Below, piece after piece: positions 46,290-56,732 of a stretch of 64,000 nucleotides of DNA (positions are counted from its first letter, which is position 1; every line of letters starts with the position of its first letter). Location: the NCBI GenBank assembly GCA_018304545.1, contig JAGVVZ010000004.1, positions 9,944 through 73,943 on the forward strand, given 5' to 3'. The notes under the pieces were generated by a model that was not told the DNA's origin, searched no databases, and saw only the letters and a program-made list of their open reading frames with translations. The stretch comes from Candidatus Aenigmatarchaeota archaeon (GTDB taxonomy: Archaea; Aenigmatarchaeota; Aenigmatarchaeia; CG10238-14). Both the position numbers and the translations under genes were made by a program.

Positions 46290-46883
46290 ATGTTTGAGAG
46301 CATAGTTGCCAGCTTGGAAACTTTCTCATTAGCATTTGGTCCTCTAGGAATTTTCATTGGAATGGCTTTAGAATCCAGTATCATACCTGTTCCTGCTGAA
46401 GCTGTTTTAGCAGCAGCCACTCTACTAGGATATACACCTTTAGAAGTGGCTATATGGGGCGGCTTAGGTGCGACATTTGGCGGAGTAATAGGATATTATA
46501 TAGGCAGTTTGGGCGGGAGACCTATACTCAACAAATACGGCAAATATATCTTTATAACAGAAGAAAAATTGAACGGGCTCGATAGTCTTTTCAAGAAACG
46601 CGGCAACTTTGTCGTTCTGGCAGGAAGGTTAATACCATTTATTCCATTCAAAATATTTTCAATAACAGCCGGGATAGCAAAAATGGATATTAAAGGATTT
46701 ACTCTGTTCACCCTAATAGGATCTATACCCAGAGCATTCATGCTTTCTTATCTCGGATACAAGCTTCTAGAGATAGGCAATGTGCCATTGATGATCTTAT
46801 CCATGTTCTTGCTGTTGATAATTCCTTTTGCTGTTGAAGGATGGATAACACGAAAAGGAAAAAAAGACAAAAACAACAAATAG
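46290..46883 (+). CDS. DedA family membrane protein
   Basis: LESSIIPVPAE, YYIG..GGRP, GRLIP. Confidence 0.92.
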   Translation: MFESIVASLETFSLAFGPLGIFIGMALESSIIPVPAEAVLAAATLLGYTPLEVAIWGGLGATFGGVIGYYIGSLGGRPILNKYGKYIFITEEKLNGLDSLFKKRGNFVVLAGRLIPFIPFKIFSITAGIAKMDIKGFTLFTLIGSIPRAFMLSYLGYKLLEIGNVPLMILSMFLLLIIPFAVEGWITRKGKKDKNNK

Positions 46884-46968
46884 CCCCGCCCAGATTCGAA
46901 CTGGGGTCTAGAGCTCCAGAGGCTCTTATGCTTGACCATTCTGCGTTTGCACTCTACACCACGGGGCT
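46881..46968 (-). tRNA. tRNA-Gln(CTG) with 15-nt D-loop intron (46939-46953)
   Basis: AGCCCCG/CGGGGCT acceptor, AGAGC-CTCTGGA-GCTCT, T-arm CCCAG-TTCGAAT-CTGGG; extra AGTGCAAACGCAGAA after position 15. Confidence 0.9.
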
Positions 46969-47008
46969 ATGACTAGAATTGGGATTTTGAAAATTAAAAT
47001 GATGTGAT

Positions 47009-52816: not shown

Positions 52817-53800
52817 TTACTCTAACACTAAATTTAGCTTAAACCCACAACCTGGACATCTGTCTTTCTCGAGACTGATTTTTGATACTAAACCATGATC
52901 TCTTACAATCATCGGTTGCATGCAGTTGTAGCAGAACGTGGTTTCGTATTCAGGTTCAACTTCTCCATGAATATAAGGGAATCTCAAGCCAACTCTTTGG
53001 GCTTCATTCGCAAAATGTTCTAGTGTTTTTGCAGGCACAGGCACACTTCTCAATTTATCGTTAGGTTTGAAATCCATCAAATGAAAAGGAACACTGGAAT
53101 CCAAGTTGTTAACTACCCAATCTGTTAGACGACGATAAGCATCTTCATTATCACCATAATGAGGAATAATTGTATTCGTGATCTCAATAAATACCCTGTG
53201 TTTTTTAAAATTTTTTAAAGCATGAAAAATGGGAGATGAATCAGGTGCGTCAAGATATTTCTTGTAAAGTTCATTATCTCCGGAACCAACAAATTTCACA
53301 TTAACTGCATCTAGATATTTTCCTATCTTTTTTATTCCTTCGGATGTTATATAACCGTTTGTTGATAGAACAGTTTTAATGTTATATCTTTTTGCAACCC
53401 TGGCCAGTTTGTATGCAAACTCAAAAAACATTGTTGGCTCATTTCCAGAAAGAGCAATTATTCTGATTTTCTTTTTGTTAACCATCTTCACAACATCTTC
53501 AGGTGTGGCAGGATCCCCTTTGATTTTATCCGTTCTTCCTTCATCCCAGTCAAAATTGTTTCCGTTAGATTTAATAAATAAAGCTTGCGCCCCAGGAAAG
53601 AAATGATACAACGGCATCTTCTCTATATTATTGATCTTTGTTCCGATTACTTTTCCATAACTTTTCGACTTTAATGATCCCTTTTCGTTTACTCTGACCT
53701 TGCATACTCCACTCTCTCCCTCAGCAATTAAACAATTATAAGCACAAAGAAAACATCTTATCTTCTTTCCTTCTCTAGACCATAACAAAGCTTCTTCCAT
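52817..53800 (-). CDS. AmmeMemoRadiSam/PflX-like radical-SAM homolog lacking CxxxCxxC
   Basis: CFLCAYNC..G.C.VR.N, IEK.PLYHFFPG, NEPT, EITN..IP, C-terminal Zn ribbon; GNNFDWDEG replaces GCNFxCxxC. Confidence 0.85.
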   Translation of the reverse strand: MEEALLWSREGKKIRCFLCAYNCLIAEGESGVCKVRVNEKGSLKSKSYGKVIGTKINNIEKMPLYHFFPGAQALFIKSNGNNFDWDEGRTDKIKGDPATPEDVVKMVNKKKIRIIALSGNEPTMFFEFAYKLARVAKRYNIKTVLSTNGYITSEGIKKIGKYLDAVNVKFVGSGDNELYKKYLDAPDSSPIFHALKNFKKHRVFIEITNTIIPHYGDNEDAYRRLTDWVVNNLDSSVPFHLMDFKPNDKLRSVPVPAKTLEHFANEAQRVGLRFPYIHGEVEPEYETTFCYNCMQPMIVRDHGLVSKISLEKDRCPGCGFKLNLVLE

Positions 53801-53868
53801 GTAGTTATTCATATTGTATTCCAGAGTATTAAACTTAAGTTTACATAAAAAAGAAAATTTTTTATTAT

Positions 53869-53952
53869 GCCTCGATAGCTCAGTTGGTAGAGCACCTGTC
53901 TCGTAAGTTGCAAGAAAACAGGAGGTCACGAGTTCGATCCTCGTTCGAGGCT
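53869..53952 (+). tRNA. tRNA-Thr(CGT) with 11-nt intron
   Basis: GCCTCGA/TCGAGGC, CCTGT-CT-CGT-A[AGTTGCAAGAA]A-ACAGG, canonical D and T arms. Confidence 0.93.
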
Positions 53953-54010
53953 CATATTAACTTTAAAGTGATAACTTTATATATAATAATTCTTTATAGG
54001 AATAGATTAA

Positions 54011-55033: not shown

Positions 55034-55330
55034 GTGGATTTTTTATTAAAGTTTGAACGAAGTAAATTAGAAGAAATAAAAAGAATCCTATTAGCAGATG
55101 ATATGGTTTCAAGAGGAAGTCTGATATTTAAGGACTCTATTGGCTTAGGGTTCAAAGAAGATGTTTATTATTGCTACATTTCTGCAACTGAAGAGATTTG
55201 CAAAAAAGCAAAAGAATTAGTTGGAAAAATTACAAAATTTGTTGAAGGTAAAGAAAAACAAGAAGTGATTGAAAAAATCAAGAAAGAAGAGGAAACGGCA
55301 GCAGAAGGATTCGGTGCTATATTCGGATAA
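55034..55330 (+). CDS. hypothetical protein
   Basis: 98 aa ending AAEGFGAIFG, abutting tRNA-Gly. Confidence 0.7.
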   Translation: MDFLLKFERSKLEEIKRILLADDMVSRGSLIFKDSIGLGFKEDVYYCYISATEEICKKAKELVGKITKFVEGKEKQEVIEKIKKEEETAAEGFGAIFG

Positions 55331-55402
55331 GCGTCGGTGATCTAGTGGCTATGATTGGGCCTTGCCAAGGCTCCCACCCGGGTTCGAATCCCGGCCGACG
55401 CA
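55331..55402 (+). tRNA. tRNA-Gly(GCC)
   Basis: GCGTCGG/CCGACGC, GGGCC-TTGCCAA-GGCTC, GGTTCGAATCC. Confidence 0.95.
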
Positions 55403-55452
55403 TCTGTTTAGTTCTGTAAAGGTTTAAATAATTATTCCCCGTACAATCTCAG

Positions 55453-55821
55453 ATGACAACTTACATTTTAATGACTAGTGATAATATTGGACCTTATCTT
55501 CATAGAGCTTTACAAGTTGGTGCAGACACAATTATAGATAAAGGTGATGCTACAGAAGGACTGAAACCATATAGAAGTGAACTTGGAACAATCATGATCG
55601 TGGATGACACCCAGTTAACTATTAGCGCAGTGTCTCAAGTTTTAAGAGGACTCGACTGTGGATCAATATATACATATACTGATCCTAACTCTGCTTTGCA
55701 AGCTTATAGATCAGGAGAAGTGAGACCGACTCTAGTCCTATCTGATCTAAATATGCCGGGTATGAACGGCTTTGAATTAGTAAAAGAAATGAAAAAAATC
55801 GATGATCGATCTACAGAATGA
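55453..55821 (+). CDS. circularly permuted response-regulator receiver domain
   Basis: ILMTS..ALQVGADTIIDK (b4-a4-b5) precedes IMIVDD...LVLSDLNMPGMNGFEL (b1-a3). Confidence 0.85.
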   Translation: MTTYILMTSDNIGPYLHRALQVGADTIIDKGDATEGLKPYRSELGTIMIVDDTQLTISAVSQVLRGLDCGSIYTYTDPNSALQAYRSGEVRPTLVLSDLNMPGMNGFELVKEMKKIDDRSTE

Positions 55822-55897
55822 TTCATCCTTTCTAATTGATGATGTGATTTTTCTATTTTAAAGTAAACTTTAATTAAAAGAATGTCTATATTGAATA

Positions 55898-56407
55898 TTG
55901 AATAACATGGTATTTTTCAGGAAAAAAACGAGTTTAGAAGAAAAACCATCACAACCTCAGAAAGTTGAAGAAATACCTAAACCAGTAACAGAAACAAAAA
56001 CTAAAGCAGAAGAAACTATGCCTCAGCATAAAGAGGAACCTGTGAAGGAAGAAGAATATCAGCAAGAAGAAAAAAGAGAAGGCATACCACTTTTCGTCAA
56101 ACTCGACAAATACCAAACCGTTCTTTCTCTTGTAAATGAATTAAAAGCAACTGTTTTTATGATGAAAAATGCTTTGGCAGTTCAGAAAAAGTTGGAAGAG
56201 TTGACGCATGAAAATATTACTATAATAGCCGATGCATTAGGCAAATTAGAAGAAAGAGTTGTTGCTATGGATGCTGAATTCACTAAACCTCCCGGATATG
56301 AAGAAGAGTATGTGGAAATGGGAGAGGATCAAAATATTGAATATGCTATTTCTGATCTGAAACAGAAATTAAGTGATTTGAAATCCGATATTAAGCAGAT
56401 GATTTGA
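55898..56407 (+). CDS. acidic coiled-coil hypothetical protein
   Basis: Glu/Pro-rich N-terminus, PLFVKLDKY, coiled coils. Confidence 0.75.
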   Translation: MNNMVFFRKKTSLEEKPSQPQKVEEIPKPVTETKTKAEETMPQHKEEPVKEEEYQQEEKREGIPLFVKLDKYQTVLSLVNELKATVFMMKNALAVQKKLEELTHENITIIADALGKLEERVVAMDAEFTKPPGYEEEYVEMGEDQNIEYAISDLKQKLSDLKSDIKQMI

Positions 56408-56732
56408 TTCTCAATCCACACATAGGACAATAGTTGGAACCTTTTTGCAACTTTCTGCCGCAATCACTGCAATAGCTCATCCTCTCTCTTATCCCTCTCT
56501 GAACTTTTCTTTCCACGATGTGAGCCGCTCCACTTGCAAATCCACCGATTCCGATAATTTTTATGGACAGGAAGAAAATTATCAATCCTATGAATATCAA
56601 TGGTACACCTAGAATCGCTCCTATAATGGTAGAAGTCAACCCTATACCCAATATGATTAATGCTAATCCAATACAAGCGATAAATATTCCAAGCATAGCA
56701 AAAATGTAAAAGATTATTTTACCTATAGACAT
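56391..56732 (-). CDS. membrane protein with C-terminal zinc ribbon
   Basis: Two TMs, YCSDCG...YCPMCG. Confidence 0.75.
   Translation of the reverse strand: MSIGKIIFYIFAMLGIFIACIGLALIILGIGLTSTIIGAILGVPLIFIGLIIFFLSIKIIGIGGFASGAAHIVERKVQRGIRERMSYCSDCGRKLQKGSNYCPMCGLRIKSSA

Follow-up and report, generated by a model that had tools for sequence, protein, structure and literature searches.

Does the open reading frame at 55453..55821 (+) encode a receiver (REC) domain that was circularly permuted in nature, and if so, is the product still in use? The frame lies in a stretch of 64,000 nucleotides from a Candidatus Aenigmatarchaeota genome (G000), which we call the window. It starts with ATG and codes for 122 amino acids followed by TGA, the same domain-sized frame that was described in the initial annotation. 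On its 5' side a tRNA-Gly(GCC), detected with ARAGORN at 55331..55402 (+), ends 50 nt before the start codon, and an unrelated gene follows on the 3' side. A TATA-like box, TTTAAATA, is found at 55423..55430 (+), centred about 26 nt 5' of the ATG, and the distance suggests a leaderless-type spacing. Both orthologs, G001 (TTTAGATA) and the divergent G002 (CTTAAATA), keep the box at the same place, which agrees with the earlier proposal that the gene has a TATA box of its own.

The protein can be divided into two pieces. The N-terminal piece (aa 1-45, 55453..55587, +) was delimited by DSSP, a REC profile, Pfam and hhalign, and contains b4 (aa 3-8, including T8), a4 (13-21), b5 (26-29, followed by K30) and a5 (30-43). 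The C-terminal piece (aa 46-122, 55588..55818, +), defined by the Pfam alignment and by structural matches, contains b1 (46-50, followed by D51 and D52), a1, b2, a2, b3 (94-98, including D98), a MPGMNG loop and a3 (106-120). D98 is the predicted phospho-acceptor; its codon is at 55744..55746 (+) and LVLSD98LNMPGMNG aligns with the REC profile.

In the C-terminal piece the receiver is easily recognised. PF00072 matches aa 47-117 with an E-value of 1e-15 and 58.3 bits (the gathering cut-off is 30.2 bits), and the match is confined to positions 1-68 of the 111 in the profile, i.e. the frame ends after a3. In the whole-genome search the match passes through the TGA and reaches profile position 77 in G000 and 78 in G001. 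There a possible remnant of b4, FILSN, lies in frame past the stop codon (55822..55836, +); this candidate is seen in G000 and G001 and is absent from G002. An alternative genetic code for TGA was considered and dropped, as readthrough gains few residues before two further TGAs. The element order is b4-a4-b5-a5-b1-a1-b2-a2-b3-a3 and the canonical order from b1 to a5 is not found; since the order is rotated, we regard the protein as a permuted derivative and not as a member of the canonical receivers. The old termini are joined, with a5 running into b1. By sequence, all five active-site residues (the acidic pair, the phospho-Asp, T/S and K) are present as D51, D52, D98, T8 and K30, as had been claimed, with the three aspartates in the half that is aligned by Pfam.

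The locus itself is real. The earlier worry that it could be a misassembly or a piece of a longer REC gene can be dismissed: the gene arrangement is the same in all three genomes of the genus, a 658-nt contig from run X4 spans 55338-55995 with zero differences, and the flanks are a tRNA and an unrelated gene. An identical protein, called from M7, is found on 6 contigs. The organism shows up in runs X1-X6; in X5 and X6 a part of the gene lacks cover, and we draw no inference from these. In X17, the only RNA run listed, 0.04 of the words were present.

Comparison with relatives reveals a genus-specific insertion. The 444-bp cassette (55404..55847, +) consists of an archaeal-type promoter, the permuted gene and 26 nt; it is single copy in the genome and has a GC content of 0.36, against 0.345 for the window. 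In a contig from run X7, position 55403 is joined directly to 55848, so that 444 nt are skipped and the site is empty. The same tRNA-Gly precedes the homolog of the downstream gene in other genera, and there only about 50-140 nt separate the two. The tRNA is thus the left landmark of the insertion site. To the right, 55848..55897 (+) is an older intergenic stretch that holds the downstream gene's promoter, identified by its conservation in a three-way alignment of all three species and by the empty sites elsewhere. The right landmark is a conserved gene of unknown function with 169 aa (55898..56407, +), present in 21 of the 23 genomes of the family and without any Pfam family match; the ATG at 55907 is probably where it truly begins.

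Where could such a cassette come from? We searched 1.84 billion representatives, and among the best 150 rows eleven, besides the permuted family, span the query from residue 10 or earlier to at least residue 114. These proteins are 240-1045 aa long with 2-4 matched stretches each, and the four that were inspected are all tandem REC proteins. Junctions of hybrid kinases likewise align along the whole frame, both with HMMER and with tblastn. Because the frame is collinear with junctions in natural proteins, a tandem REC-REC junction is a plausible source, and so is the trimming from a tandem gene that was suggested from the start. The donor gene was not found; canonical RECs from the family share 26-40% identity with the C-terminal piece.

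The same order of elements was found within the genus only, in G001 and G002. A word-indexed protein search gave 8 candidates, two of them at E<=0.001: the query itself and the C-terminal part of the G001 protein. Among the matches listed for the 1.84 billion representatives, the family consists of P0001, P0003 and P0002 only. Among 79 loci on genome contigs only L022 is permuted, and it is identical to the G002 protein. For metagenome contigs, 80 loci were kept; none of the six with a match starting before query residue 30 (L125, L136, L138, L148, L165 and L196, all inspected) is permuted, and for the remaining 74 the match table was the basis of the judgement. P0070, a protein of 132 aa, was considered as a further permutant and rejected: it is the first half of a canonical REC with an unrelated N-terminus. 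In these protein, genome and metagenome searches, homologs with the same order were found inside the genus and not beyond it.

No kinase had been noticed in the window, and this extends to the assembled genome. G000 is 960 kb and 92% complete (relatives are listed at 0.3-1.3 Mb), and we found no HisKA, Hpt or acetate kinase in it. For HATPase_c, topoisomerase VI B is the sole match, and with this and the absence of Hpt no chemotaxis partner of the CheA/CheW type was found for a CheY-like protein. Apart from the permuted frame, the genome has no REC match. In other genera of the family, CheY-like genes are found beside a kinase (L006).

Taken together, we favour a genuine orphan receiver, circularly permuted and specific to this lineage, that derives from a tandem-REC junction and probably acts without a kinase, and we would give this reading a probability of roughly 0.6. 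The cassette would be a captured or trimmed junction, consisting of the second half of one receiver and the first half of the next, and this fragment would then have adapted to fold on its own. The new chain ends would lie in the former a3-b4 loop, with a5 running almost directly into b1. The N-terminal b4 and b5 may join the edge of b3 and restore the 2-1-3-4-5 sheet, which would bring T8 and K30 back to D51, D52 and D98. The most likely conserved role would be to bind a partner protein independently of phosphorylation, in the manner of pseudo-receivers and of orphan receivers with a single domain, since the searches of the genome for a histidine kinase, Hpt and acetate kinase found none and the ortholog in a sister species lacks the Asp. 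In the G000 species, where all five catalytic residues are kept, phosphorylation by a small-molecule donor may persist.

The orthologs show how the gene is maintained. The permuted family has three members only, all from assembled metagenome genomes. In G001 a 1-nt deletion at site 55555 splits the gene, the same deletion is carried by a contig from run X7, and the two halves (47 and 74 aa) overlap as ATGA. In G002 the frame is intact and the protein is 29% identical, but the phospho-Asp is gone: D51 and the T/S are kept, while position 52 is V, D98 is replaced by G and K30 by R. Between G000 and G002 50% of the 345 aligned nucleotides differ, and still both frames are open from the same start with every gap in frame. 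Under neutral mutation to this distance only 26 of 20000 copies stay open. The reading frame is clearly kept open by selection. In addition, the similarity between N-terminal pieces and between C-terminal pieces is in each case above all 5000 shuffles, and the 33 invariant residues include buried strand positions. The dN/dS ratio between G000 and G001 is 0.26 for the C-terminal piece and 0.84 for the N-terminal piece, the latter from 8 changes only. Between G000 and G002, pN/pS is 0.46/0.47 for the N-terminal piece and 0.50/0.62 for the C-terminal piece, compared with 0.15/0.82 for the neighbouring gene. The evolution of the permuted frame is thus very fast and looks relaxed. Of the original idea of a functional permutant, the permutation stands; for the function, the frame is kept by selection, yet the fast evolution, the frameshift in G001 and the residue losses in G002 leave this part weaker.

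These observations bear on an alternative that we consider unlikely, namely that the gene is a decaying relic: a tandem-REC fragment that landed beside a tRNA, happens to be transcribed, has no function and is being lost. The restriction of the insertion to one genus (it is missing in sister genera and in the X7 relative), the G001 frameshift, the loss of catalytic residues in G002, the near equality of pN and pS, the small genomes and the lack of a detected kinase, Hpt or acetate kinase in G000 are all consistent with such a decay. Against it stand a frame that is open from the same start at 50% divergence, gaps that are all in frame, a conserved promoter box, the low dN/dS of the C-terminal piece and the buried strand positions among the invariant residues. 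The predicted fold is also confident, unlike that of a raw junction fragment. Finally, the split halves of G001, besides their ATGA overlap, are predicted to bind each other. This is a weak pass: the halves score 0.36, where the highest of 3 controls has 0.02. Of 157 solved complexes 116 reach the mark, as do 2 of 215 mismatched pairs, but with values up to 0.60 only 18 of the 157 and both of these mismatches do so, and split-domain halves can also pass through their likeness to solved receivers. The contact agreement of the halves is at least 92% and the partner pLDDT at least 61.

A bolder reading of the same orthologs goes beyond the kinase-independent orphan receiver that we prefer. Here the sister species would represent stages in the birth of a gene from a domain joint (intact, split and Asp-less), and the intact form would be a working phospho-acceptor charged by a small-molecule donor or by the kinase of another organism, i.e. 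a kinase-free permuted signalling module made of one protein. We find this doubtful.

Next, the fold. With AlphaFold2 on a 4-row alignment the protein is predicted as five strands and five helices with a mean pLDDT of 92 and a pTM of 0.87; the five models have pLDDT values of 92.0, 91.3, 90.0, 71.6 and 71.2. DSSP assigns E3-8, H13-21, E26-29, H30-43, E46-50, H54-66, E71-75, H78-87, E94-98 and H106-120, which together with the profile alignments bears out the rotated order. The ESM Atlas model of the same sequence has a pTM of 0.84 and a pLDDT of 0.85. According to both predictors the window protein is, with confidence, one compact (beta-alpha)5 domain; structure prediction was among the checks proposed in the initial annotation. 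As a control we took from a natural hybrid kinase with three RECs a junction fragment of 117 aa that has matching boundaries. It obtains a pLDDT of 47 and a pTM of 0.42, with its first 46 residues below 50 pLDDT; its alignment is nearly invariant (97-98% identity) and therefore holds less information than that of the query.

Solved receivers superpose on aa ~42-120 of the model with Z-scores of 7-9.7 and rmsd values of 1.4-2.7 A. The top structural match has Z 9.7 over 81 residues at 2.6 A. In the structural searches and among the ESM Atlas neighbours only aa ~38-122 align to receivers, and no full-length neighbour with the same order was found. A Foldseek search of the Protein Data Bank gave no match at E<=0.001, which is expected for a permuted chain and is uninformative about the N-terminal piece. 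From the prediction confidence together with sequence logic, b4 and b5 would dock on b3 and the active site would be closed, with T8 and K30 beside D98.

The self-closed monomer that we favour could instead be a domain-swapped dimer or oligomer, in which b4-a4-b5-a5 of one chain completes b1-a3 of another, the a5-b1 connection being not long enough for self-closure. Only about 2 residues (44-45) between a5 and b1 are neither helix nor strand in the model, and the spacing from K to DD is 21 residues, compared with ~25-27 in tandem REC proteins. The swapped receivers 7p8d, 7p8e and 1dz3 are among the structural matches, and PMC9815098 reports that C-terminal elements are swapped in CheY and in the CRE1 receiver. 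However, both monomer predictions are confident throughout (pTM 0.84-0.87), including the block of aa 41-50 with a pLDDT of 91, and we give the swap only a slim chance.

The N-terminal piece is where the sequence evidence is most delicate. Alone, aa 4-31 match positions 73-100 of PF00072 weakly (E 0.17), and this is the sole Pfam family listed. With our own REC profile, built from 264 canonical receiver domains, the piece from G000 aligns to positions 79-106 with 5.9 bits, a score reached by 1 of 2000 shuffles; the pieces from G001 (4.4 bits) and G002 (1.0 bit) are reached by 7 and 66 of 2000, respectively. All three fall at positions 79-106 or 84-104 of the profile, and T8 and K30 align with its conserved T and K. 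Using hhalign, the piece is placed on columns 79-112 of an alignment of 7 canonical RECs (P 0.013), and BLASTP against a canonical REC of the same family gives a second segment at the permuted position, with aa 15-40 aligned to 87-108 (E 0.33). A profile of the three pieces, when run against Protein Data Bank sequences, lists no receiver among 20 matches at E<=10 and has a zinc alcohol dehydrogenase as its best match (E 0.0023). For this reason we grade the receiver signal in the piece, at the level of sequence, as real but modest. In the G002 ortholog ADH_zinc_N (E 0.00094, aa 14-67) outscores REC (E 0.0069), both below the cut-offs; PF00072 obtains 17 bits there, below gathering. It is nevertheless very improbable that the N-terminal beta-alpha-beta is a generic Rossmann-like 'lGAD' unit capping a truncated REC, as the two dehydrogenase matches could suggest, given the shared b4-a4-b5 positions, the placement of T8 and K30, the Pfam, hhalign and BLASTP results and the collinearity of the whole frame with tandem-REC junctions.

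Receiver domains are among the commonest signalling modules, and for switching they rely on the connection of the phospho-Asp of b3 to the b4-a4-b5 face. A natural cut between a3 and b4, rejoined via a5 and b1, would test how important that covalent link is. We found no natural permuted receiver in the literature (open-access papers and preprints). The case would document a natural route to circular permutation by tandem duplication and then truncation, with the empty site, the split form and the Asp-less form all available in close relatives. It covers three members from uncultured archaea with a predicted function, and offers a rare natural snapshot of the rewiring of a protein fold, apparently born from the joint of two neighbouring receiver domains.

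Among known systems, the aspartate-less pseudo-receiver, the orphan receiver and the five active-site residues are defined in PMC12632262, where a pseudo-receiver is a recognisable receiver without at least one of the five residues. By that definition, the G002 ortholog, which lacks the D site, is an aspartate-less pseudo-receiver, while the G000 protein keeps all five residues and is not; with no partner kinase found, the latter fits the orphan receivers in the sense of that paper. The stem 'permut' has 0 occurrences in PMC12632262, so that it does not present its pseudo-receivers as permuted. Flavodoxin-like (beta-alpha)5 units with a rearranged order are also found among PBP-like chimeras and the engineered permuted lobes of ribose-binding protein (PMC9815098). 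From this group, chain 8q52_A aligns with 94 residues of our model spanning 11-119 (Z 8.3, rmsd 2.7 A); these proteins are designed, belong to another superfamily and lack the receiver active site.

Compared with canonical receivers (PF00072; CheY, Spo0F), the G000 protein has the same ten secondary-structure elements and the DD, D, T and K, and its b1-a3 half superposes on them at 1.4-2.7 A over ~70-80 residues. It is also a stand-alone single-domain protein, as CheY is. It differs in starting at b4 and ending after a3, with a single Pfam stretch (positions 1-68), in that K30 precedes G and not the usual P, and in that the search of its genome turned up neither a kinase nor Hpt nor a chemotaxis partner. 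Circular permutants of CheY were reportedly engineered by Nobrega and colleagues in 2014, and the CheY fold is said to tolerate new termini; those are laboratory constructs, whereas the window protein is natural. The closest likeness in linear order, with nearly the same spacing, is to the junctions of tandem REC-REC proteins and multi-REC hybrid kinases (P0009, P0017, P0028, P0105; L024, L030, L034), but there each half is part of a complete domain of its own. A junction fragment with these boundaries is not predicted to fold (pTM 0.42), whereas the window frame stands alone, with its own promoter and a predicted closure.

The ORF at 55453..55821 (forward strand) starts with ATG and encodes a protein of 122 residues. 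In a Pfam scan of the whole ORF, the receiver family PF00072 (REC, cut-off 30.2 bits) covers residues 47-117 with an E-value of 1e-15 and 58.3 bits, leaving residues 1-45 outside the match. The matched span reaches from b1 to a3 and includes the pair D51 D52, which follows b1, and D98 within LVLSD-LNMPGMNG; the ORF ends a few residues past a3. When residues 1-45 are scanned alone, PF00072 is the sole Pfam family listed, with a weak E-value of 0.17. The initial annotation described a domain-sized ORF in permuted order, and this is borne out: the C-terminal piece (residues 46-122) matches profile positions 1-68 of 111, the N-terminal piece (residues 1-45) positions 73-100, and the AlphaFold2 model has the same order of elements.

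To identify the N-terminal piece, we compared it with canonical receivers. Using hhalign, columns 5-36 of the N-pieces from the window's genome (G000) and the other two genomes of the genus (G001 and G002) align on columns 79-112 of seven canonical receivers drawn from related genomes (P 0.013). An independent profile of 121 positions was built from 264 unique full-length receiver domains, whose loci were fetched by peptide patterns from the C-piece alone, so their second halves were not picked for likeness to the N-piece. On this profile the N-pieces fall at positions 79-106 or 84-104, with 5.9 bits for G000 (reached by 1 of 2000 shuffles), 4.4 bits for G001 (7 of 2000) and 1.0 bit for G002 (66 of 2000). 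The alignment places YILMTSDNIGPYLHRALQVGADTIIDKG over vivltakaekedkekaleagaddyltKP, with T8 as the conserved Thr and K30 as the conserved Lys. Together with D51, D52 and D98 in the Pfam-matched part, the acidic pair, phospho-Asp, Thr and Lys are all retained, as was claimed. However, none of the 20 Protein Data Bank sequence matches of the N-piece profile at E<=10 is a receiver; a zinc alcohol dehydrogenase ranks first (E 0.0023), via the common 'lGAD-vI' helix-strand motif, and in the G002 ortholog ADH_zinc_N outscores REC in Pfam, both being under their cut-offs. These two results count against a receiver identity, and the signal is significant and positioned as expected, but modest.

The structure prediction proposed in the initial annotation agrees with the permuted order. 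AlphaFold2, using an alignment of four rows (the ORF, the G002 ortholog and two G001 pieces), gave a mean pLDDT of 92.0 and a pTM of 0.87, and the five models score 92.0, 91.3, 90.0, 71.6 and 71.2. The model contains five strands and five helices (E3-8, H13-21, E26-29, H30-43, E46-50, H54-66, E71-75, H78-87, E94-98, H106-120) in the order b4-a4-b5-a5-b1-a1-b2-a2-b3-a3, and if it closes as a receiver does, T8 and K30 would be expected beside D98, completing the active site. The exact same sequence is present in the ESM Atlas, with a single-sequence model of pTM 0.84 and pLDDT 0.85. VIA-align matches the model to receivers at Z 7-9.7 from about residue 38/45 to 118/122; eight of 48161 chains have Z>=8, and the top match is 7p8d_A (Z 9.7, 81 residues, rmsd 2.6 A). 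The structural neighbours in the ESM Atlas cover residues of about 41-118 with TM 0.55-0.58, and Foldseek gave no matches to the model at E<=0.001. As expected for a permuted chain, sequential aligners reach the C-piece only. To see if AlphaFold2 would close any such fragment, a 117-residue fragment cut at equivalent points, from b4 of one receiver to a3 of the following one, was taken from a natural three-receiver hybrid kinase and modelled with its three orthologs. It obtained a pLDDT of 47 and a pTM of 0.42, with residues 1-46 below 50 and the b4 and b5 strands absent; this control is suggestive, not strict, because its alignment is 97-98% identical and poorer than that of the query.

Upstream of the ORF, a tRNA-Gly(GCC) found by ARAGORN on the forward strand ends at 55402. 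The TATA box claimed for the ORF is seen as the TATA-like TTTAAATA at 55423-55430 (forward strand), its centre about 26 nt upstream of the ATG, a spacing that would fit a leaderless archaeal transcript. Downstream, at 55898-56407 (forward strand), is a gene of 169 residues without a Pfam family, present in 21 of 23 genomes of the family (loci L096-L117); its protein has an N-terminal part rich in lysine and glutamate and a conserved, coiled-looking C-terminal part, and probably starts at the ATG at 55907 (MVFFRKK...) rather than the TTG at 55898. Among 19 loci of this gene fetched from other genera, ARAGORN finds tRNA-Gly(GCC) immediately upstream in eight, gives an odd tRNA call at that position in two, and nine are without such a tRNA. 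The gap between the tRNA and the gene is about 50-140 nt in most and about 366 nt in locus L099. A 98-residue ORF upstream of the tRNA-Gly (55034-55330, forward strand) has a homolog at the same position in another genus (G008, L110), so the block of 98-residue gene, tRNA-Gly and 169-residue gene predates the insertion. On the other side of the 169-residue gene, each of the three species of the genus has a conserved small membrane protein whose C-terminal part is a zinc ribbon (56391-56732, reverse strand; Pfam Zn_Ribbon_1, E 8.9e-06).

A misassembly can be dismissed: a 658-nt contig of sequencing run X4 spans 55338-55995 with zero differences, and the permuted gene lies between tRNA-Gly and the 169-residue gene in all three genomes of the genus. 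In a contig of run X7, 55403 is fused directly to 55848, skipping 444 nt; this is a relative's empty site. The locus is an insertion confined to this genus. The inserted cassette has one copy in the G000 genome and the local base composition (GC 0.36 vs 0.345). This genome (960 kb, completeness 92%) is marked as archaeal by aIF2-alpha, PAC2, ribosomal protein S2 and an S-layer protein in the window, and by topoisomerase VI B elsewhere.

Some side observations concern tRNAs. The contigs G001:C36 (L003) and G002:C36 (L005) end at the identical base within the tRNA-Gly gene, and in run X7 the middle part of this tRNA is common to many other contigs, with a depth up to 292; the assemblies seem to have broken where the tRNA sequence is repeated. 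The tRNA at 46880-46969 (reverse strand, 90 nt), for which ARAGORN gives the undetermined two-base anticodon '(ca)', may be an archaeal intron-bearing tRNA. A tRNA-Thr(AGT) at 53869-53953 (forward strand) overlaps the 5' end of the longest radical-SAM ORF call (52817-53929, reverse strand), so the true start of that gene is probably a Met further downstream.

The family of the permuted protein has three members, all from metagenome-assembled genomes. The G001 ortholog (76-85% protein identity) is missing 1 nt in the part that encodes a5, giving ORFs of 47 and 74 residues that overlap as ATGA. The same deletion, at 55555, is found in a 1458-nt contig of run X7 together with a 3-nt deletion at 55716; this run is not necessarily the source sample. 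In a binding test the two G001 halves score 0.36 vs 0.02 for the best of three controls (contact agreement >=92%, partner pLDDT >=61), with the verdict 'weak support'. Among solved complexes 116 of 157 reach the pass mark, and among mismatched pairs 2 of 215; passes at 0.60 or under comprise only 18 of the 157 plus both mismatches. Halves of a split domain can pass on account of their likeness to solved receivers. The G002 ortholog is an intact ORF of 115 residues with the same start and element order and 29% full-length identity. In it, V replaces D52, G replaces D98 and R replaces K30, and it cannot take phosphate at the usual Asp. The catalytic set is complete in the G000 and G001 lineage, where the C-piece scores 58 bits against the family profile vs 17 in G002.

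The protein is evolving very fast. In the comparison of G000 with G001, the C-piece has a dN/dS of 0.26 (17 synonymous and 18 non-synonymous changes) and the N-piece one of 0.84, the latter from just two synonymous and six non-synonymous changes, vs 0.09 in the adjacent gene. Over 345 aligned nucleotides the G000 and G002 genes differ by 50.4%, and pN/pS for this pair of genomes is 0.46/0.47 for the N-piece, 0.50/0.62 for the C-piece and 0.15/0.82 for the neighbour. Neutral drift does not account for the ORF, since after random mutation to this distance it stays open in only 26 of 20000 copies, all gaps are whole codons, and both pieces resemble their counterparts above 5000 of 5000 shuffles (N-piece 45 vs 19.3 +/- 3.9, C-piece 71 vs 21.7 +/- 3.9). 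A young gene whose constraint is weak or shifting would fit this pattern.

A trimming from a tandem REC-REC gene, as proposed initially, agrees with the collinearity to tandem junctions, but no donor gene was found. A profile search of 1.84 billion representatives matched 8619 proteins at E<=0.001, the only close relatives being P0001 (the window's protein), P0003 (G002) and P0002 (the G001 C-part). Among the best 150, eleven others have matches that reach from query residue <=10 to >=114; they have 240-1045 residues and 2-4 matched stretches each. The four that were read (P0009, P0017, P0028, P0105) are tandem receiver proteins in which the match crosses the joint between two receivers, as it also does in multi-receiver hybrid kinases (genome_contigs), and the ORF is therefore collinear with a tandem junction. 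The K-to-DD spacing is 21 residues in the ORF, whereas it is about 25-27 in tandem receiver proteins. L015, a receiver gene from the same family, likewise has the uncommon K-G and a 'KPY' following b5, but the second BLASTP segment between it and the ORF (E 0.33) is non-significant by itself. L015 (G007:C3:15301-18495) is the canonical receiver most like the N-piece; unlike the family's other loci it has long ORFs on both strands, and the stretch may be a foreign or contaminant contig. In another genus, two CheY-like genes of 121 and 119 residues on G018:C64 (L006/L014) overlap by 1 nt; a histidine-kinase-like gene precedes them and a CheC-like ORF follows. An adjacent pair of this kind could become a tandem REC by one frameshift. 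The in-frame 'FILSN' past the ORF stop, absent in G002, could be the start of a next b4.

The lack of a kinase, noted before for the window, extends to the assembled G000 genome, where no HisKA, Hpt, acetate kinase or second receiver was found and the sole HATPase_c match is topoisomerase VI B. In G002, locus L118 (G002:C56:384-3417) has a histidine kinase (466 residues), a 120-residue receiver and a HisKA-containing ORF in series, a canonical kinase-receiver pair; none like it was seen in G000 or G001, and the contig may be foreign, since the stated contamination of G002 is 6%. Because no kinase or donor genes were found in G000 and G002 lacks the Asp, we think that the conserved activity is most likely to bind a partner protein with no signal from a kinase, as orphan receivers and pseudo-receivers (as defined in PMC12632262) do. 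The whole catalytic set and the C-piece nearer to the family profile leave room for phosphorylation by a small donor in the G000 and G001 lineage, which is speculative.

Nobrega et al. reportedly described engineered circular permutants of CheY in 2014. No natural circularly permuted receiver, CheY or response regulator was found in the open-access papers and preprints covered; the permutation in PMC2829493 concerns operon order, and that in PMC9815098 engineered ribose-binding protein lobes. The protein lacks the element order that defines a canonical member, and is most suitably classed as a circularly permuted derivative of the receiver domain, resembling a single-domain receiver in its predicted mode of working.
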